25,477 nucleotides of DNA, from the UHGV virus genome UHGV-2038699. One strand, given 5' to 3'. The position numbers and the translations under genes were made by a program. The notes beneath the pieces were generated by a model. The model saw nothing but the letters and a program-made list of their open reading frames with translations. It was not told where the DNA came from and ran no database searches. The stretch comes from a virus. Position 1 is the first letter of the stretch, and each line of letters begins with the position of its first letter. Below, in pieces: positions 2,869 through 10,944 of this stretch.

Positions 2869-3548
2869 CAGAGTAATACTCCCCATGCCCCTACATCAAA
2901 ACCACTGATGTATTCGTTATCAATATCAAACCCAAAGAATTTAGAACCCTCGGAAGGTGTTTCAACCGAAGGCGTTTCAACATCACCGGCCCATACGCCA
3001 GCTGATTTAACGGTGAGATAGCCCTGTTTGATAGCGGCGATCAGTTCGAGAGACACATCAGAAATATCAGTTTCAGGGAAAACCCAGACCGAAATCGTCA
3101 TGTCCTGGTTGTCGACGATCTGCATCCTCAGGCCTGAGCCTGCGGTAGCAGCGTCAAGGATGGGAGGCAGAGAGTCGTTCCGACCGTCCCAGTTGTTGAT
3201 AGCGATTTTCGCTTTCAGAATGATGCGGTACGTCTCATCGCTTAGAGTCGTATAGCCAGAATCAGGATCATATGGCCCTTGCCAGATGCCCTGGTCATAC
3301 CCAAGCCCGTCAGTGTCCCAGCTGAAATAAACTCCGCTAATTGGCTGGCTGACTATGCGACTGCGTCCGATCCACAGACCGAGGATGTCGAGCTGTACAC
3401 CGACAGCAGTATCGATATCGAAGGCTGTTATAAGCCCTGACATAGTGCTGGACACATCAATCAGCGGGCGGGTGCTCAGATCTATATGGTCAAAAAAGAG
3501 TGGCTTGGTAGCGTGGTAGTTAGTGATCAGTTCGGTGTATTTGCTCAT
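2868..3548 (-). CDS. Baseplate/tail protein (P2 gpI / Mu gp48 / e14 YmfQ-like position)
   Basis: 226 aa; ATGA start/stop overlap with the J-like gene upstream; lies between the baseplate J-like gene and the tail fibre as in Mu/e14-type tails. Family assigned mainly by synteny. Confidence 0.5.
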
Positions 3549-4744
3549 GAGGTCACCGTGATACTGATATTCGCGGTGCTACAGGACGCTGAAGCATCAT
3601 AGGCAATATCAATGTTTGATGCCGATACGCTGCCAGACGACTTACCGATCAGCAGGTCGGTAATATCGTAATAGCGGGCATTCCCGCCGCTCACAACGCC
3701 GAGGTTTGCCGGGGAATAAATACGGCTCAGCAGAACGTCGTCGCCAATTGTTAGGCCATTTATATAATCGGCAACAGCCTGTTTAATCTGCTCGCCGATT
3801 TGAGAGGTATAGCCGGTAAAAACTTTCAGGGTAATGGCTACGAAAATTGGCACATCGGTAGAGCGTGAAAAACTGATGACGTGAGGATTACCGTAAGTAT
3901 CCGGCACCGTGACAGAAGTTGTCCCGTAGGTTGCCGTTCCCTGTCCTTTATTCCCCCTGATGGTCTGGGCTATTTCGGTAACATCCCCACCATCGACGAT
4001 GGCGGAAATTGAGTGCGGCGGTAGCCCGTTGCTGTCTGTTGTTCCTGTGTCGTTCTCATACAACTTGTGACGTGTCACGCCAGCAACGTTAGCTATTGCA
4101 CCGTCGACACCTTCAAACGGTGTGATCGATGGTAGCGCGACGCTTTGCGACTGGCGGATACGTAACTCCGCATCAGTTTCTGCTGGAGTGCCTACAGTAG
4201 CTGCAGCAGGATTGGTTACCGAAACCCAGCCACGAGTCGGTGTGTTAATGGTGGTAATAGTCCCGGCCATCGCAGCAACCGAACCGCTATTCGCACATGT
4301 GGCCGTCACCAGCACAGTACCATCAACGCCGATCGCTACACTTGCGGGAAAATTCCAGATAATGCCGTTTTTATCCCGTGCGGAGCCATTCGTGATAGTC
4401 GTGCCTGCCGTACCGGTTAACAGAAGGTCAGCAGTAGAGTTTGTCGCTACTTTTCGCGTGATCCCGTTAATTTTCACATTGTTGCTAAGCGCTGCGGCCT
4501 GCGCTGTCGTCGGTGAAAAAGAGTTGTAGATCTCGATAGCGGTATTGTTAGCGTCATGCACCGCAAGAGCCACCAGCGCGACCATTTGCCCATCTTTGCT
4601 GTCTGGTTCGAGGTAGGCATCACTACCGTAAATCTGCCTGAAATAGCTGGTCAGTGTATCAAGGATTGTCTGGTAATCAGGCGCACTAATCCCCTGGGCG
4701 GTTACCGTTGCCGATAGCCCCAGCGTGTCGAGGTTCAAAGCCAT
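3545..4744 (-). CDS. Baseplate J-like protein (P2 gpJ / Mu gp47-like)
   Basis: 399 aa, tightly packed between the W-like and I-like genes; size and position match baseplate wedge J proteins. Confidence 0.6.
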   Translation of the reverse strand: MALNLDTLGLSATVTAQGISAPDYQTILDTLTSYFRQIYGSDAYLEPDSKDGQMVALVALAVHDANNTAIEIYNSFSPTTAQAAALSNNVKINGITRKVATNSTADLLLTGTAGTTITNGSARDKNGIIWNFPASVAIGVDGTVLVTATCANSGSVAAMAGTITTINTPTRGWVSVTNPAAATVGTPAETDAELRIRQSQSVALPSITPFEGVDGAIANVAGVTRHKLYENDTGTTDSNGLPPHSISAIVDGGDVTEIAQTIRGNKGQGTATYGTTSVTVPDTYGNPHVISFSRSTDVPIFVAITLKVFTGYTSQIGEQIKQAVADYINGLTIGDDVLLSRIYSPANLGVVSGGNARYYDITDLLIGKSSGSVSASNIDIAYDASASCSTANISITVTS

Positions 4745-5098
4745 TTATGCCTCGCTTGTTACAGTCGTCTGGCCGTAGATTGTGTCAATGGAGGAAGTGA
4801 AGGTGACGCGACGGCTGGTGCCGTCATAATTGGTATCGAAGGAAAGAATCGACAGAACGCCCGGTGTGTCCTGTATGCGTTCACGTATAGCCAGGATGTA
4901 GACGTCAGATCGCTGTTTACCAAGCACCGACTGAACATACGGCGTGCCTTCCGTCAGATCGAGAAACCACTGACCGCGCCACAGCTCGAAGCGGGTTTTT
5001 ACTGCCTGGGCGACACATTCCGGACTGTCGATAAGGAAAGTATCGTCACCCTGCCCGAAAGTGTAATCACCGTCGGTGTCTTCACGTCTGTATCGCAT
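4745..5098 (-). CDS. Baseplate wedge protein (gpW / gp25-like position)
   Basis: 117 aa; immediately upstream of the J-like gene (stop and start adjacent); size and synteny typical of W/gp25-type proteins. Confidence 0.5.
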   Translation of the reverse strand: MRYRREDTDGDYTFGQGDDTFLIDSPECVAQAVKTRFELWRGQWFLDLTEGTPYVQSVLGKQRSDVYILAIRERIQDTPGVLSILSFDTNYDGTSRRVTFTSSIDTIYGQTTVTSEA

Positions 5099-5101
5099 AA
5101 A

Positions 5102-5200
5102 TCACCACCAGCGTATAGCGCTAATAACGCTTGACAGACCGAATAAAAAGAACACGGCCCAGATGAGGAAGAATTTCCAGTTGGGTAGTTTTTCGCCCAT
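5102..5200 (-). CDS. Small hydrophobic protein, 32 aa (MGEKLPNWKFFLIWAVFFLFGLSSVISAIRWW), putative single-pass membrane peptide
   Basis: Not in the ORF track (below its 60-aa limit). ATG at 5200 with GGGAG RBS 9 nt upstream; stop 3 nt before the W start; one predicted TM helix. Confidence 0.4.
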   Translation of the reverse strand: MGEKLPNWKFFLIWAVFFLFGLSSVISAIRWW

Positions 5201-5274
5201 GACTCGCAACTCCCGTATCAGTTTGCTAAAATTAATCACATATTCTCCCTTGCTATCCTCAAGGTGCAGAAAGT

Positions 5275-5312
5275 AAAAAGCCCCGAAGTGTTAGCGCACC
5301 CGGGGCTTTTGT
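5275..5312. terminator. Bidirectional intrinsic-terminator-like hairpin between spike V and the small ORF
   Basis: GCCCCG...CGGGGC stem (5280-5285 / 5301-5306) flanked by an A-run on one side and a T-run on the other. Confidence 0.5.
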
Positions 5313-5326
5313 CTGTTTGGTAGTTT

Positions 5327-6067
5327 TTAATTAGGCGCGGTAGTATTCCCGCTGCCATTCTGCACACCGCCATGGGTATGCTGGATGAGGCTCTTTCCTC
5401 CAGCCTTCACATCGTTAGTCACCGTCACCGGCCCAAGCATCGTCGCAGTACCGCCACTTTCGCCCATTCCCTGAGACAGATTGCCATTAATCGTTACGTT
5501 GCCGTTCAGCGTGATAGTCGGGGATGTGATTGTCGTTCCACCTTCAGCCGTAGCCGTGAGCTGGCCCGGTGTTTGAACGGTGATGTTATGTCCTGCGGCA
5601 ACCTCTACGAACGCCGCACCATCATCGGTTCGCAGCTGCGCGGCGCTGGTACTGATACCGCTGATTTTCTGTGCTTGCGACTGCGGGCCAACGATGGCGA
5701 ACGCATCAGATAAGTCATGCTGTCGCGGATCGACGGTCTCCTGAACGCCGCCGCTCTGCCACCAGAAATCGATGCAACGGTCGGCAAAGATCAGCAGGCA
5801 CTCGTCGCCTTCTTTTACCGGAAAGGTCAGCGTGCAACCGCCGCCGCGCGGGAAGATAACCGGCACATCCACCAGCGGTTTTAATTCGGTGGAGCCATCG
5901 CCAACAATACCGCGAAGCGCTACCTCTACTGTGCAGGTAACAGTGTCAGGATCGAACGACTGAATGATGCCGGGCATCGCTACGCGCATCTGGGTAGACA
6001 CCGAATCGGCAATGGCCTGCGCGGTCTGCTGCTCACCCCCGATCTGTGATTGAGTTGGAATTGGCAT
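5327..6067 (-). CDS. Baseplate spike / assembly protein V (gp5-like OB-fold N-terminus, beta-helical C-terminus)
   Basis: N-terminal region (GIIQSFDPDTVTCTVEVAL...VPVIFPRGGGCTLTFPVKEGDECLLIF) matches the phage baseplate V family; C-terminal repetitive TITSPTITLNGNVTINGN and an HTHGG motif typical of spike tips. Confidence 0.75.
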   Translation of the reverse strand: MPIPTQSQIGGEQQTAQAIADSVSTQMRVAMPGIIQSFDPDTVTCTVEVALRGIVGDGSTELKPLVDVPVIFPRGGGCTLTFPVKEGDECLLIFADRCIDFWWQSGGVQETVDPRQHDLSDAFAIVGPQSQAQKISGISTSAAQLRTDDGAAFVEVAAGHNITVQTPGQLTATAEGGTTITSPTITLNGNVTINGNLSQGMGESGGTATMLGPVTVTNDVKAGGKSLIQHTHGGVQNGSGNTTAPN

Positions 6068-6078
6068 AAAACCCCCAT

Positions 6079-6101
6079 AAAAAAACCAGCCGAAGCTGGT
6101 T
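6079..6101 (-). terminator. Intrinsic terminator-like hairpin (CCAGC-cgaa-GCTGG followed by U7 on the minus-strand transcript) immediately upstream of the V RBS
   Basis: Stem 6086-6090 / 6095-6099, then a run of 7 A on the plus strand (6079-6085), i.e. U7 on the minus transcript; the V RBS (GGGGG) starts 2 nt after the U-tract. Confidence 0.55.
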
Positions 6102-6289
6102 TGGTATCAATTATCTCTTAGTAACTAAGCTACATCAGTGTGAAGTAAGGCTTTTCCGCTGCAATGGCACACATTCACAAGGTGTATTAGGATATGTTTG
6201 CAACAAGTAAGCATTGAAAATCAATTTCAGCCATGAAGCCGCCATAGAGTGGACCTGCACCATCGCATTATTGACTACAGGAGTAACAA

Positions 6290-6580
6290 ATGGGATTTAG
6301 ATTTCGTAAAAGAATCCGGATTGCGCCCGGACTCGCGATCAACATTAGTAAAAGCGGAGTAAGCACTTCAATTGGTGGTAAAGGTTCCACCATTAACATC
6401 GGAAAAAAAGGCGTAAAGATGACAAATGGCCTTCCCGGCACGGGGCTGTCGCATACCACTAACCTTTACTCTCCCGGGAAATCGACAGAAAAAAAACAAC
6501 TTACTCATAAGCAAAAAATAATTAGAAACATCCTGTTCGTAATTATTGTGTTTATTATAATTAAAGCTCAATATTTTTGA
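6290..6580 (+). CDS. DUF4236-like small membrane protein (N-terminal MGFRFRKRIRIAPGLAINISKSGVSTSIGGKG motif, C-terminal TM helix)
   Basis: ATG at 6290 with CAGGAG RBS 6 nt upstream; opposite strand to all structural genes; its own terminator follows; AT-rich relative to flanking genes; C-terminal hydrophobic segment ILFVIIVFIIII. Confidence 0.65.
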   Translation: MGFRFRKRIRIAPGLAINISKSGVSTSIGGKGSTINIGKKGVKMTNGLPGTGLSHTTNLYSPGKSTEKKQLTHKQKIIRNILFVIIVFIIIKAQYF

Positions 6581-6585
6581 CGCAT

Positions 6586-6617
6586 GCCCGCCTATCTGGC
6601 GGGCTATTTTACTTTTC
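6586..6617 (+). terminator. Intrinsic terminator of the DUF4236-like gene
   Basis: GCCCGCC-tatct-GGCGGGC stem-loop followed by TATTTTACTTTTC, 6 nt after the stop codon. Confidence 0.65.
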
Positions 6618-6954
6618 GGCAGTCGTATGTTGCATACTGACGCGGCGAATCCATGCTGGCTTGCAGCCACTGTGCGTTGAGAATGGCTTTGCCGTTGCGC
6701 TTGATGTACTCAAGCCCAACCCAGCGGCCGGGTTGATTAGTTGCAACCGTCCATTCCATCTTGAGATTTTGATAATCTTCCTTGGCTTTCAGAAAGGTCA
6801 TTTTCTGGTTTTCTGGCTTTACACCATTAATATGCATAAAACCATCATTACCTGCGGTGAGGCGATATGGCCCGCATTGGGTATCAGCCATTGCAGTTGA
6901 AGCTCCGACCAACGAAAGAACGGCTCCGCAGATAACATTCCTAATTTTTGTCAT
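6604..6954 (-). CDS. Secreted/periplasmic protein of unknown function, 116 aa, cleavable signal peptide, two Cys
   Basis: Starting at the ATG at 6954: MTKIRNVICGAVLSLVGASTAMA|DTQCGP (n-region K/R, hydrophobic core, AMA cleavage motif). Convergent with the DUF4236-like gene. The ORF track extends it to 7014, but that would overlap the hub gene. Confidence 0.6.
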   Translation of the reverse strand: MTKIRNVICGAVLSLVGASTAMADTQCGPYRLTAGNDGFMHINGVKPENQKMTFLKAKEDYQNLKMEWTVATNQPGRWVGLEYIKRNGKAILNAQWLQASMDSPRQYATYDCRKVK

Positions 6955-6955
6955 A

Positions 6956-8020
6956 TCACACCTGTACTTTTTGGAGCGTCGACTGACTATATAATTCACG
7001 ACTGCCACGCGCAAAGCACATCAAATCCATGTACCACGCCTGACCTCTGGTGTCGCCAGTATAGTCGATAGCTTTGACGATATAAACGCCATCCGTCGCA
7101 ATGCTGGCAGCCTGTGACGTCGTACCGGTCAGCACACGGTTGCCATTCTCTTCAGTTTCGGTGATACGCCCGGGCGACTGTGCGATTTCGCTATTACCGA
7201 GCGACGCGCGGTACACCGAAGCCTGATCGAGCTGGATAAGACCATTAATGCGGATGTTTGGGTTTATCAGGCACCGCACGTTTACGCCGCCGCCCATCGT
7301 CTGTTGCGGCATACCAATCAGGCCAGTATTGGCATTCAACACAATGGCTTCGTGAATATATTTATCCTCCGGCACCATCTGGACCTGACCATCCACCAGC
7401 TGCCATGTCGCTTTGCACTGCGCTGCAATATTATCCATCACGTTACGAGTGGATGAGTAAATCGCGCGGCCACGAGGAAACACGGTATCAGGAAAATCGC
7501 CGGTAATGCCCTGTGTCACGCCGAACACGTTGAAATCCTGCATCGTCGCCCGGTGCAGATCCGCAACGGTATAGCCAGCGGCAAGCGTAGTGATGGTAGT
7601 CGCGTAGAGGAACGCTTCATGATCTCCAATAGCCTGAATCAACACCCAGGAATCGGTAATGTTGTCCTTCCCGGTTACGGTAAAGCGAATATCACCGTCA
7701 AAAATCAGGCCGTAGTTCTGACCGTTCACCTGCCCTATCTGGTCTGGTGAAATCTCTCGGGCGACGCCGACCTGGCTCGCATCAACATCCGGCGCTATAC
7801 CGTCATACCCGGCAATGATGCGAATTTTGGCAAACTCCTGCCCCAGTATCTTGTTCGTGGTATCGGTCGAAAGGTTGTAAATTTTCACGTTCGCCACGCG
7901 CGGCCAGCGTGTGTCTGCCCACTCGATCTGGAACGTGACCTTAAAGTCAGACAGGGAAACGCCCTGCCCGTTCTGGTCCAACAGTTGCAGCTCAAAATGG
8001 CGCATCCAGTTAAGAGACAT
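6956..8020 (-). CDS. Baseplate hub / tail protein (P2 gpD / Mu gp44-like position)
   Basis: 354 aa, located between the tape-measure-proximal genes and spike V; assignment is by size and synteny only. Confidence 0.45.
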   Translation of the reverse strand: MSLNWMRHFELQLLDQNGQGVSLSDFKVTFQIEWADTRWPRVANVKIYNLSTDTTNKILGQEFAKIRIIAGYDGIAPDVDASQVGVAREISPDQIGQVNGQNYGLIFDGDIRFTVTGKDNITDSWVLIQAIGDHEAFLYATTITTLAAGYTVADLHRATMQDFNVFGVTQGITGDFPDTVFPRGRAIYSSTRNVMDNIAAQCKATWQLVDGQVQMVPEDKYIHEAIVLNANTGLIGMPQQTMGGGVNVRCLINPNIRINGLIQLDQASVYRASLGNSEIAQSPGRITETEENGNRVLTGTTSQAASIATDGVYIVKAIDYTGDTRGQAWYMDLMCFARGSRELYSQSTLQKVQV

Positions 8021-8022
8021 TT

Positions 8023-8328
8023 CTACTCCTGCACGAAAATGAGGTGGCTGTATGTGCCGAGGTTGGTTTTGGTGGGCTCGTCCGGTGCGCCTACATCGCA
8101 GCCAACGAGCAGCGCCCCGTTAATACCTAGTTGAGGATATTGCTCAAGAAGATTTACACCGGTTACCAGCGGCACGCCAGAAAGAAGCGCAGCACCGCCG
8201 CTATCCATCACGTCCATGATCCAGCCAGCCGCATCGCGCCAGATGATCCTGAGCGTATAGGTGGTATTGCCCAGCAAAACGCGGAACTGCTGATTGTCAG
8301 GAGAAAGCGGTATTTCGTTAAACTGCAT
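8023..8328 (-). CDS. Tail/baseplate assembly protein, hypothetical
   Basis: ATG at 8328 with GGGGGA RBS, 1 nt after the upstream stop; the track ORF extends to a TTG at 8364. Function unassigned. Confidence 0.4.
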   Translation of the reverse strand: MQFNEIPLSPDNQQFRVLLGNTTYTLRIIWRDAAGWIMDVMDSGGAALLSGVPLVTGVNLLEQYPQLGINGALLVGCDVGAPDEPTKTNLGTYSHLIFVQE

Positions 8329-8329
8329 A

Positions 8330-8932
8330 TCATCCCCCGAATGCTGATGTAACGCTTCCGCCAAGCTGGCTCAGCAAGGATTCGTTTGGCTGTGTAGTGG
8401 ATTTCGTCCCGGAATTTTGCACCGCCGATGTGCTGACGCCATCCTGCATATCTGATTTATCAGCAACACTAACGCTCTGCGTTTGCGACATGATCACTTC
8501 ACGCAGGGTAAGCGTGCAGTTCAGCACGTTTTCGCTGGTTTTGTCCGTTGTCACCTCGATGGCTCGCACCAGCATATTGCTGTACACCCGCTTTCCGGTC
8601 ACCACATCGAACGGCACCCGAGAGGACTGGAGATCCAGCAGTTGCTGATAGGTCTCTTTCGGGCTTAGTCCGGCGCTGAGGCCGATTGAAGATGTATCAA
8701 TGAAGTCCAGCAACGAACCGCCACCAGCGAAGCCGCATTCCATTGTGACTTCGCTGGGGCGCTTATACGCATGATCGGCGATGAAGCCCGAAGCGCTATT
8801 CGTTGTTGGCTTCTCCACCGGGTGCTCAGTAATTTCGAGCGCATCAGAATGCTTTTCGGAGACGACCACGCTGGGGATCAGCAGGCCAATTCGCCGGGAT
8901 TGCTGGCGAAAAATCGCTGATAAAATATCCAT
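8330..8932 (-). CDS. Tail protein, hypothetical (between tape measure and hub)
   Basis: 200 aa; ATG overlaps the tape-measure stop codon (translationally coupled). Confidence 0.4.
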   Translation of the reverse strand: MDILSAIFRQQSRRIGLLIPSVVVSEKHSDALEITEHPVEKPTTNSASGFIADHAYKRPSEVTMECGFAGGGSLLDFIDTSSIGLSAGLSPKETYQQLLDLQSSRVPFDVVTGKRVYSNMLVRAIEVTTDKTSENVLNCTLTLREVIMSQTQSVSVADKSDMQDGVSTSAVQNSGTKSTTQPNESLLSQLGGSVTSAFGG

Positions 8933-10944
8933 TATCTCGGTCCTGCGGGGAGTTGCTGGGTTAACTGTGAATTCACGCCCTTTTGACGGTCAACAGTCAA
9001 ACGGGCAGCTTCGCGAGGATCGGAAACGCCGTGGATGTTAATGTTCGTTTCCTGCTGAATCACCGGGGCGCTGGTGGGCATATTGCTCATTACTTTCGGA
9101 ATGTAATTGCGCGTTTCCTGCGGCATTAGCCCCATTCCATAACGCTTAACATTCCCGATCCCCCAGTTATATGATGCCAGTGCTTTGCTAAGGTCTCCGC
9201 CGTTCTGCCGCAACAGCTGGCTGAGGTACTTAGCGGCTGCCTGAGCTGACTTTTCCGGGTCGAATACATCATTCCCACGCAGGCCCATGTCGCGCGCCGT
9301 GCCATCCATAAACTGAAACAGTCCTTTCGCGCCTGCGCCGGATATGGCGAACTGGTTACCACCCGACTCGGTGATCGCCACGCTTTTCAACAGGCCAGCT
9401 GGCAGCTGATAAAGCGACTCCAGTTTATTGAACATTGGCCCCATCCAGTCGAGCAATACCTTACCCTGGGCTGTGGCTTGTGGGCGCTTCACTGACTGGG
9501 CGTATTGCTCCGGTTCAGCGCCTGGAATATCTGACTGAATATTCGCGCCATACACGGTATTGGGATTGCGGCCAAAATCGGTATTAAACCCCATCCAGCG
9601 GAGCGCATCTCCGATGTTTCCTTTGGTGTAGTCCCATGATGATTTAGCGCTTTCTTTAATATTATGCCTGTCGTCCACCAGATACCCGGCATAAATAGCC
9701 CACAGCTTCAGCCATGGCGGCATAGGTATTCCGGCTAACTTAGCAAATGCAGAGGTTATTTTGCTTAACCATACCCCTGCAATGAAGGTAGCCAAAATTT
9801 CCAGTGAGTTCTGCCACCCACCGACAGAATCTTTTAGCTCCAACAGCTTATCTCGCAGCCAGATAATTGCCTTTTTCGCCTTTTCTATTGCTGGTTCCCA
9901 CTTGCTCCAGTCAATCAGGCTTTTTCCGCCCTCTTTCCACGTCTGGTAATCGTCATAGAGTAATCCGATCGCCAGAATCAGCGTGGTGATAATTCCAATC
10001 GGGGATTTCAGGAACGCAGAATTAAGCAGACGCCATGCGACAAGTAGAGCACCGAATATTTTCAGCAGATTTTTACTGCCATCGTCAAGACGCTTCCACC
10101 AGTCGATGACAGAGCCAGCGCCCTGTATCAGCCGCCACGCCATTCTCGTGAATGCGTTCGCAAGCCAGATCACGCCGTTAATAACTCTGGTAAGCGTCTC
10201 TTCAATCTTCGGGAAATTGTCGAGGATGCGCCGCCGCAGGCTGTCCAGCGAACCAGCCAGGCCACCAGCGAGGTTTGAGCCGATCTTGTCCCGCATGATG
10301 CCGAACAGCGACGTAAGCCCGCGCATGGACGTCATGAATTTGTTGGACTGAACAGCCGCTTTATCAGCGTTGAACCCTGTCTTTTGCAGCATCGACTGGT
10401 AATCGGCGGTAAAGCCATTCATGCCGCGCCGCATCGCCATCAGCGTGTTTTCATCGATGCCAAGCATCTGCGCGTATTGCTTCGCGCGGTAATACGGCAT
10501 GTTGTTGAGCTTTTGCCCAACGCCAGTAAAGATGGCCGCAGTATCACGCATCTTTCCGCTGGCATCACGGGTCTGGACACCCAGGCGGTTCAGGAAGCCT
10601 TCCGCCCCCGGATTGCTACGCATGAACCCCGCCAGCCCTTCGAGGGAGGACATAGCCGACTCGGCGCTGGCACCGGTTTGCGATGCGGCATAGCCCAGCG
10701 CTTTGATGCCCTGGACGCTGGCCCCCGTCCGCTGGGATGCCCAGTAAATTTTATCCAGACCATTCGCGATCTGGGTGGTAAATCCGACAATGCTCAGCGC
10801 TGCGCCTTCCACCACCGCGCCGACCTTCAGAACGTTCGCGGTAACACCTTTCAGCACGGCTTCAAACTTATTAGCGCCAGCCTGATCGATATCGAATCCC
10901 AGCGAAACAAGGAAATCTTTAATCGTATCTGCGTTACCGCTCAT
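8932..10944 (-). CDS. Tail tape measure protein with C-terminal lytic transglycosylase (SLT) domain
   Basis: 670 aa, largest tail gene, downstream of chaperone/tube/sheath; internal hydrophobic segments; C-terminal motif SVAITESGGNQFAISGAGAKGLFQFM characteristic of SLT catalytic Glu-Ser region. Confidence 0.75.
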   Translation of the reverse strand: MSGNADTIKDFLVSLGFDIDQAGANKFEAVLKGVTANVLKVGAVVEGAALSIVGFTTQIANGLDKIYWASQRTGASVQGIKALGYAASQTGASAESAMSSLEGLAGFMRSNPGAEGFLNRLGVQTRDASGKMRDTAAIFTGVGQKLNNMPYYRAKQYAQMLGIDENTLMAMRRGMNGFTADYQSMLQKTGFNADKAAVQSNKFMTSMRGLTSLFGIMRDKIGSNLAGGLAGSLDSLRRRILDNFPKIEETLTRVINGVIWLANAFTRMAWRLIQGAGSVIDWWKRLDDGSKNLLKIFGALLVAWRLLNSAFLKSPIGIITTLILAIGLLYDDYQTWKEGGKSLIDWSKWEPAIEKAKKAIIWLRDKLLELKDSVGGWQNSLEILATFIAGVWLSKITSAFAKLAGIPMPPWLKLWAIYAGYLVDDRHNIKESAKSSWDYTKGNIGDALRWMGFNTDFGRNPNTVYGANIQSDIPGAEPEQYAQSVKRPQATAQGKVLLDWMGPMFNKLESLYQLPAGLLKSVAITESGGNQFAISGAGAKGLFQFMDGTARDMGLRGNDVFDPEKSAQAAAKYLSQLLRQNGGDLSKALASYNWGIGNVKRYGMGLMPQETRNYIPKVMSNMPTSAPVIQQETNINIHGVSDPREAARLTVDRQKGVNSQLTQQLPAGPR

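Follow-up and report, generated by a model that had tools for sequence, protein, structure and literature searches.

Between the baseplate hub gene and the gene of baseplate spike V in the virus genome UHGV-2038699 lies an interval of 0.9 kb (positions 6,068 to 6,955 of the 25,477 nucleotides analysed here, to which we refer as the window) that is probably an accessory-gene hotspot of lambdoid, SEN34-like temperate myoviruses of Enterobacterales. A fixed gene of the family phrog_3443 is followed there by a swappable slot and by a terminator-like hairpin belonging to the backbone. In the window, the slot is occupied by what would be a moron cassette, carrying a gene of the DUF4236 family on the strand opposite to the tail operon. 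The initial annotation of this DNA, made from the sequence alone, had read the interval as an accessory island of two genes bracketed by terminators. The features it described, namely the open reading frames (ORFs), the flanking genes, both hairpins and the ribosome-binding sites (RBSs), are all present where it had placed them. The naive reading is corrected here in that the signal-peptide gene and the terminator before V belong to the backbone and are not cargo.

A replaceable slot between the hub and spike genes

Our survey covered the 53 of 5426 complete E. coli genomes that carry the region, 6 loci from other species and 80 IMG/VR loci, found in searches seeded with a conserved gene or with the region around it. 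The gene order hub, phrog_3443, slot and V recurred in every surveyed locus (~90), and only the part corresponding to positions 6068-6603 was variable. In the relatives, the slot measures between 62 bp, when empty, and 1714 bp, with a guanine-cytosine (GC) content of 0.34-0.49. At least 25 different contents rotate through it, most of them small and uncharacterised cargos. The two empty slots (L009 and L039) are from a Rahnella genome and one viral contig. DUF4236 cassettes, in variants of 497, 525 and 536 bp, fill the slot in 24 loci of the survey; among the 53 E. coli genomes, 19 have the cassette, and the rest have other cargo or none. The other cargos include Phd/Doc toxin-antitoxin pairs of two kinds, a P22-type Ant antirepressor with an Arc-like repressor, an antisense 116-residue protein with an EACC1 domain, four variants of a pair of ~260- and ~125-residue proteins with weak HEPN-like signals, and several signal-peptide proteins and three-helix membrane proteins without a family match. 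Searching these other cargos with PADLOC gave only hints at E ~1e-3 (HEPN_IX, SngB) and no convincing match.

The hotspot is precisely bounded, from the last ~15 codons of the hub gene to the U-run before the spike gene. The left edge of the mosaicism is found ~50 nt before the hub stop codon, and the last ~15 C-terminal codons of the hub are highly variable, co-varying with the phrog_3443 allele. The right edge coincides with the U-run and RBS before V. A coding block of ~90 nt in the 3' part of the hub gene (window 7010-7100) is near-invariant across 69 relatives despite many substitutions upstream, and recombination at the left side of the module is likely anchored in this block. Recombination between the conserved flanks would exchange unrelated low-GC cassettes in the slot.

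Base composition and comparison with relatives are both those of a moron. The AT-rich stretches reported in the initial annotation are real, the GC content being 0.395-0.43 at 6100-6400 and 0.395 at 6400-6600, whereas the flanking genes have 0.55-0.595, and the slot as a whole, at 0.41, deviates in the same way. The slot is also extra DNA with respect to otherwise collinear relatives, as seen from the empty slots, the slots with other cargo and Providencia phage PSTCR3. The comparison with phages whose hub and spike genes are adjacent, which had been proposed together with the annotation, found the two genes overlapping without any insert in PSTCR3, and other genes at the hub/spike junction in SEN34, Hafnia yong1 and Burkholderia Magia. 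Because PSTCR3 is free of an insert, neither phrog_3443 nor DUF4236 is required for this baseplate type.

The DUF4236 cassette moves between these backgrounds. Its protein is 96-100% identical to the window version in loci whose phrog_3443 and V share only 59-75% and 53-74% identity, respectively, with their window counterparts, and near-identical DUF4236 copies beside such diverged flanks therefore indicate that the cassette moves horizontally on its own. The survey of slots and this contrast in identity bear out the earlier suggestion that the gene is horizontally moving accessory cargo, and that the site is a genuine hotspot. The hotspot is an ordinary kind of phage accessory site, whose value lies in its mapped bounds, the catalogue of cargos and the DUF4236 lead. 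SEN34-like prophages are present in ~1% of complete E. coli genomes and also in Klebsiella, Salmonella, Serratia, Hafnia and others, and such hotspots have proved rich sources of new defence genes.

The hairpin before the spike gene

The hairpin with seven U residues next to V had been taken as the boundary of the island. A consensus scan for terminators found 5 sites in the region where 3.4 are expected from shuffles, which is not above chance; what speaks for both hairpins of the interval is their position and conservation. A GC-rich hairpin, then T6-8 and then ATGGRGTTTTT-ATG stand at each of the 46 distinct slot ends, including those of the two empty 62-bp slots. The hairpin itself takes the form of a GC-rich stem of 7-8 bp, often with a UUCG loop, and U6-8; in the window, 2 nt separate the U7 from the GGGGG RBS of V. 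Since the hairpin persists both with antisense cargo and without cargo, it is a backbone element and not an island edge.

An alignment of 28 sequences indicates that pairing has been maintained. In the 7-pair helix, 98.4% of the cells are paired, compared with 28-64% when the 3' partners are slid. Compensatory double changes are found at two pairs, where the DUF4236 cassettes have A:U, and the Omnitron type G:C, in place of C:G, and the covariation score of the hairpin was reached by none of 500 shuffles. Judged from the sequences, the element at 6079-6102 appears to be an intrinsic-terminator-like structure selected for pairing.

In one IMG/VR locus (L071, IMGVR_UViG_3300003320_000063), the hairpin and T-run are found twice, after phrog_3443 and before V, around a cargo of 785 bp. 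This arrangement suggests that a cassette can be inserted downstream of the terminator, which is duplicated in the process.

The hairpin might instead serve mainly for RNA stability or processing, for translational regulation of V or as a recombination joint, which we consider rather unlikely. The 2-nt gap to the RBS of V would suit such a role, as would the resumption of homology at this point, for example at window 6085 in the comparison with Citrobacter phage Omnitron, and the near invariance of the T-run and RBS. However, the hairpin has the canonical form of an intrinsic terminator, compensatory changes keep its pairing in a way that a pure recombination joint would not need, and L071 has two copies flanking its cargo. 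A match to the small RNA isrK (Rfam) at 6080-6162 on the minus strand was rejected, as it scores 23.4 bits where the gathering score is 50 and its alignment is driven by the terminator and contains non-canonical pairs. The folding z-score of that region is 0.23, no more stable than shuffled sequences.

phrog_3443, a fixed gene after the hub

The gene following the hub encodes 116 residues with a predicted signal peptide and matches phrog_3443 in PHROGs (E 4.4e-46, residues 8-116 against profile positions 6-114 of 115), and so do its positional counterparts in other E. coli prophages. Its ATG (6954) is 1 nt past the hub stop codon (6956-6958), and its Shine-Dalgarno (SD) sequence overlaps the end of the hub gene, an arrangement that points to translational coupling to the hub. 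In each of the ~90 related loci the gene comes directly after the hub, regardless of the cargo and also where the slot is empty. It is a fixed backbone gene of the module, not cargo, and the statement that the ~0.9 kb lies outside any conserved module is wrong for the ~40% of the interval that phrog_3443 takes up.

A protein search returned 79 clusters of phrog_3443 homologues, none of which has a Pfam domain; all the named ones are from Enterobacterales, and most are nameless. An exhaustive profile search of 1.84 billion representatives yielded 59 clusters, and three long remote matches of the profile were discarded as Flg_new or WD40 repeat artefacts. As far down as a hub identity of ~56%, all relatives carry the gene, SEN34 and Klebsiella phages among them; it is absent from PSTCR3, Magia and the Bordetella and Acinetobacter phages with homologous hubs.

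In the alignment, the N-terminus of phrog_3443 is variable in sequence but constant in its order of a basic segment, a hydrophobic segment and A-x-A, the window copy ending AMA/D. The start of the mature chain is conserved as D-x-Q-C-G. Two cysteines are invariant, C27 close to the beginning of the mature chain and C112 close to its end, and there is no lipobox. Homologues have been labelled as secreted or exported by their depositors. The AlphaFold2 (AF2) model has 8 strands at a predicted local distance difference test score (pLDDT) of 83, and the best BFVD match in the fold and sequence search reached only E 0.024 with a template modelling (TM) score of 0.46. These features suggest that the product is probably a Sec-exported periplasmic beta-barrel of ~10 kDa with a disulfide bond, for which the avidin/streptavidin-like barrels were among the families considered. 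Given Sec export and the conserved cysteine pair, it most likely acts in the periplasm and not as a virion component.

We also considered phrog_3443 as a structural or assembly part of the baseplate, such as a chaperone or a plug-associated protein, with a hydrophobic N-terminus that stays uncleaved. Its invariant place between hub and spike, its coupling to the hub and its presence in all relatives to ~56% hub identity are what such a part would lead one to expect. Several observations nevertheless make a baseplate part improbable. The variable N-terminus keeps the signature of a Sec signal peptide, the two cysteines are invariant and the depositors' labels agree with export; phages with homologous hubs lack the gene; and its alleles diverge far beyond the hub (59-100% identity compared with ~96%). 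The SEN34 paper reports no virion proteomics.

The combination of phrog_3443 and DUF4236 into one two-component defence or exclusion island, bracketed by terminators, is the reading closest to the initial annotation. Its appeal lies in the adjacent and convergent genes, in the envelope-directed products, one with a signal peptide and the other with a membrane helix, in the low GC content of the region and in the fact that neither gene is characterised. We hold it to be very improbable, because phrog_3443 accompanies every type of cargo as well as the empty slots, and is coupled to the hub with a gap of 1 nt, while DUF4236 is found beside phrog_3443 alleles of 59-100% identity and, in lambda-like, Pantoea-type and C. 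difficile phages, without phrog_3443 altogether. The right-hand terminator, moreover, stands between both genes and not around them. The two-gene island thus does not hold, and the cargo in the window is the DUF4236 gene.

The DUF4236 cassette

The cargo gene encodes 96 residues and matches Pfam PF14020 with E 1.8e-20 and 73.6 bits against a cut-off of 27, residues 3-55 corresponding to profile positions 1-54 of 55. The DUF4236-like membrane protein gene that had been noticed on the opposite strand is thereby confirmed, together with its AGGAG SD sequence, predicted helix and terminator-like hairpin. The AF2 model (pLDDT 79) has a six-strand meander and a helix at residues 73-95, and its structural neighbours are generic ones only. 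By the positive-inside rule, the basic N-terminal DUF4236 domain probably faces the cytoplasm. Upstream, the leader is conserved from 6236, and from there into the coding region the cassette is homologous to that of a Leclercia lambda-like siphovirus prophage, with 75% identity over 209 nt. Downstream, the hairpin at 6586-6604 and its T-rich tail are kept in all DUF4236 cassette variants; this predicted terminator of its own is a further property of morons, and its tail overlaps the final phrog_3443 codons. With its opposite strand, its own SD sequence and terminator and its low GC content, the gene looks independently transcribed.

As part of the whole explanation given here, we consider it probable that the DUF4236 cassette is a classical moron and that its product is a tail-anchored inner-membrane protein. 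A small predicted membrane-anchored protein encoded on prophage accessory DNA is a trait shared with the inner-membrane proteins of superinfection exclusion. By analogy with HK97 gp15, DUF4236 could have a function at the membrane against incoming phages, a reading that we regard as attractive, if somewhat short of probable; the linkage to tail modules would then keep the specificity of exclusion matched to the type of tail. The view that no characterised system is present agrees with the searches, in which PADLOC and NCBIfam gave no match to such a system for the DUF4236 protein; with PADLOC-DB v2, neither the DUF4236 protein nor phrog_3443 matched any defence model at E <= 0.01.

DUF4236 in the tail modules of other phages

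The 192 DUF4236 homologues have the same architecture throughout, consisting of a basic N-terminus, a Gly/Ser/Thr-rich domain of ~55 residues, a variable linker and a C-terminal hydrophobic helix; in the Vibrio and Photobacterium proteins, SH3 domains are added after the helix. Homologues at 51-64% identity occupy the same slot between hub and V, again antisense, in Hafnia, Klebsiella and E. coli phages, and in more distant myoviruses DUF4236 is found immediately upstream of V. It sits at the H-M or K-I junctions in lambda-like siphoviruses of Leclercia and Pseudomonas syringae, in a Pantoea prophage it adjoins the tape measure gene, and in C. difficile phiCD111 (L199, NC_028905.1, 10552-11193) it separates the tail chaperone gene from the tape measure gene. 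Recognisable tail neighbours were present at 70 of 80 IMG/VR DUF4236 loci and DUF4236 was antisense to the tail genes in 65 of these 70, in a census that is biased and indicative only, as it comprises the 80 loci most similar to the query, many of them near-identical. The Pfam family has >560 matches in IMG/VR, and the literature contains essentially nothing on DUF4236 beyond a passing mention in the one paper found. The family recurs in tail modules of unrelated phages, and the protein in the window, with its 96 residues, can be cloned and tested easily.

In Photobacterium damselae (L108-L110), 167-residue proteins combining DUF4236 with SH3 are encoded in chromosomal islands that are not phages, with an AAA_22 ATPase, a NERD-domain protein or an HTH-2TM protein as neighbours.

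We put forward, as a speculation for which we claim less than for the function in the window, that small membrane-anchored DUF4236 proteins form a widespread, tail-linked exclusion family. Such proteins would act at the cytoplasmic membrane against incoming genomes, in Gram-negative and Gram-positive hosts and in myoviruses and siphoviruses alike, and would be co-inherited with tape-measure, tail-tip or baseplate genes. The same speculation includes, as a separate part, that the phrog_3443 barrel might be a second, periplasmic factor of exclusion or lysis protection with rapidly diversifying alleles.

Several findings weigh against a prophage-expressed exclusion function. Pfam, NCBIfam, PHROGs and PADLOC returned only DUF4236 and families of unknown function, with no homology to exclusion proteins. 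DUF4236 is also encoded by virulent phages of ~140 kb (Klebsiella) and ~350 kb (Brevundimonas), so that a link of its role to lysogeny is not compelling. The bias of the tail-module census belongs here as well. As to expression, independent transcription had been asserted in the initial annotation; strand, SD sequence, terminator and low GC content agree with it, and a convincing sigma-70 promoter is the part that did not come forward. A strict scan of the plus strand at 5000-8200 found no promoter-like site, and a relaxed sigma-70 scan of 6068-6292 gave a single weak, low-scoring site, ATGGCA-18-TAGGAT. Finally, the Q-type antiterminator on which the scheme below depends is known from a close relative, the Q gene itself being outside the window.

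If DUF4236 served the lytic cycle instead, as a modulator of lysis or holin, a helper of injection or tail-tip assembly, or a membrane anchor for assembly, its repeated place beside tape-measure and tail-tip genes of unrelated tails, sometimes in sense orientation, would be readily understood, and so would the domain in large virulent phages. We judge this unlikely. The gene is dispensable, as the distribution among the 53 close E. coli prophages demonstrates; at 65 of 70 loci it runs antisense to the late operon, an orientation that opposes late expression; and a complete cassette of holin, endolysin and lysis protein is present elsewhere, at ~23.7-24.9 kb. A moron with a function at the membrane remains the reading that we prefer for the window.

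A possible regulatory scheme

A prophage of E. coli 873.10, located between torT and torS, is 96.6% identical. It is lambdoid, with CI/Cro/CII, N and a nin region, and an antitermination protein is encoded just upstream of its holin, endolysin and lysis genes. In lambdoid late operons, Q-modified polymerase reads through intrinsic terminators. The arrangement in the window could accordingly be imagined to work in two states. In the lysogen, the DUF4236 gene would be transcribed from a promoter of its own, and the hairpin would stop transcripts of the operon strand, such that the spike gene and the downstream baseplate and fibre genes stay silent. The DUF4236 protein would then perform an envelope function for the prophage, for example by blocking the entry of superinfecting genomes at the inner membrane. 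Upon induction, Q-modified RNA polymerase would pass the hairpin, and head-on late transcription would dampen the antisense cargo gene. Silencing in lysogeny, read-through with Q and head-on collision are all suggested here by analogy.

Comparison with known systems

Phage envelope proteins, periplasmic or bound to the membrane, that act on incoming phages, including T4 Sp/Imm, T5 Llp and phi80/N15 Cor, are often encoded near tail or receptor-binding genes. They offer a possible analogy for the secreted phrog_3443 protein, which differs from them in having no lipobox and no sequence or fold match. The lambda morons bor and lom are expressed in lysogens, and terminators are tolerated in the late operon by Q read-through. 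Unlike at bor and lom, the terminator described here is conserved in the backbone even without cargo, and Q is seen only in the relative.

The concept of morons was first defined in the setting of lambdoid late operons (Juhala/Hendrix; PMC3594210), and Cor and SieA are mentioned as exclusion proteins in the same source (PMC3594210). The closest parallel to the DUF4236 gene might be HK97 gp15, a tail-operon moron whose inner-membrane product is made from the prophage and prevents the entry of genomes (PMC3594210). Like gp15 (Juhala et al. 2000; Cumby et al. 2012), the DUF4236 gene appears to encode a small single-pass membrane protein within a lambdoid tail operon, has a deviating base composition and its own predicted terminator, and is missing from close relatives. 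The position of DUF4236 in phiCD111, at the junction of tail chaperone and tape measure, is that of the gp15 moron. The two proteins have no sequence relation, gp15 being YebO-like whereas DUF4236 has an N-terminal beta domain and a C-terminal anchor. The DUF4236 gene is also antisense to the operon, and exclusion is proposed for it by analogy.

The P2 hotspots Z/fun and tin/old are known accessory and defence sites of phages (Rousset et al. 2022, via doi 10.1101/2024.10.15.618418). The interval studied here resembles them in its fixed place between conserved structural genes, at which relatives exchange unrelated cargo, and in the cargo itself, with toxin-antitoxin pairs, domains of conflict systems and membrane proteins. 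It differs from them in belonging to SEN34-like lambdoid myoviruses, in its position at the hub/spike junction and in holding mostly one or two genes of <1.7 kb. The backbone terminator and the adjacent conserved secreted-protein gene further distinguish it from classical moron and P2 sites.

The tail operon and other features of the region

The tail and baseplate genes of the window are all on the minus strand, as judged from the ORF list and the Pfam and PHROGs profiles (Table 1). The hub, in addition to its PHROGs match, has a weak match to E217_GP41 in Pfam. A consensus scan for promoters found 2 sites against 3.4 expected by chance. The candidate at 7058-7086, inside the 3' end of the hub gene, was set aside as uninformative: its hexamers are invariant in 69 relatives, but the surrounding coding block is equally so.

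Table 1. Positions of genes and sequence elements around the hub-spike interval, in window coordinates.
Feature	Position	Strand	Basis or remark
Tape measure with SLT domain	8932-10944	-	
Dit-like protein	8330-8932	-	
Plug	8023-8364	-	
Promoter-like TTTATA-17-TATACT, candidate	7058-7086	-	consensus scan; inside hub 3' end
Baseplate hub, left flank of module	6956-8020	-	phrog_196 baseplate hub, E 1e-82
phrog_3443 gene, 116 residues, predicted signal peptide	6604-6954	-	convergent with DUF4236 gene
Terminator-like hairpin GCCCGCC-TATCT-GGCGGGC with T-rich tail	6586-6616 (hairpin 6586-6604)	+	consensus scan
DUF4236 gene, 96 residues, antisense to tail operon	6290-6580	+	Pfam PF14020
DUF4236 domain, linker, predicted C-terminal transmembrane helix	residues 1-58 (domain), 73-95 (helix)		
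SD sequence AGGAG of DUF4236 gene	6279-6283	+	6 nt before ATG
Non-coding region upstream of DUF4236 gene	6103-6289	+	leader conserved from 6236
Hairpin AAACCAGC-UUCG-GCUGGUUU with U7	6079-6102 (stem-loop 6083-6102, U7 6079-6085)	-	consensus scan
RBS GGGGG of spike V	6072-6076	-	
Baseplate spike V, right flank of module	5327-6067	-	Pfam spike N-terminal domain, E 1e-41; GpV Apex motif
Sheath-initiator/W-like protein	4745-5098	-	
Baseplate J	3545-4744	-	

Two of the other slot cargos deserve a brief description. The EACC1 (Effector Associated Constant Component 1) protein scores 24.5 bits against a Pfam gathering score of 23.6 and is encoded, among other loci, in E. coli G3/10 (L003, NZ_CP060075.1; locus 1228-1831) and in L008, L017 and L058; at the E. 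coli G3/10 site, RefSeq gives only a 53-residue hypothetical protein on the opposite strand. The pair of ~260- and ~125-residue proteins occurs in four diverged versions on IMG/VR contigs (L082, L041, L081 and L073) and is without a Pfam family. An R-N/H-E-A-D-Y motif is common to L082, L041 and L081, and the ~125-residue protein gave a weak PADLOC HEPN_IX signal (E ~1e-3) in L082 and L073, the two versions scanned. The pair is possibly an uncharacterised toxin-antitoxin or defence pair.

A second mini-slot of 228 bp and lower GC content is located at 5099-5326, between the V stop codon (5327) and the ATG of the sheath-initiator/W gene (5098). It contains, on the minus strand, a terminator-like hairpin (~5307-5270), then an RBS and then an ORF of 45 residues with a single helix (5102-5239), which shares 84% identity with SEN34 gp23. 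In the E. coli 873.10 relative this insert is missing, and V and W abut.

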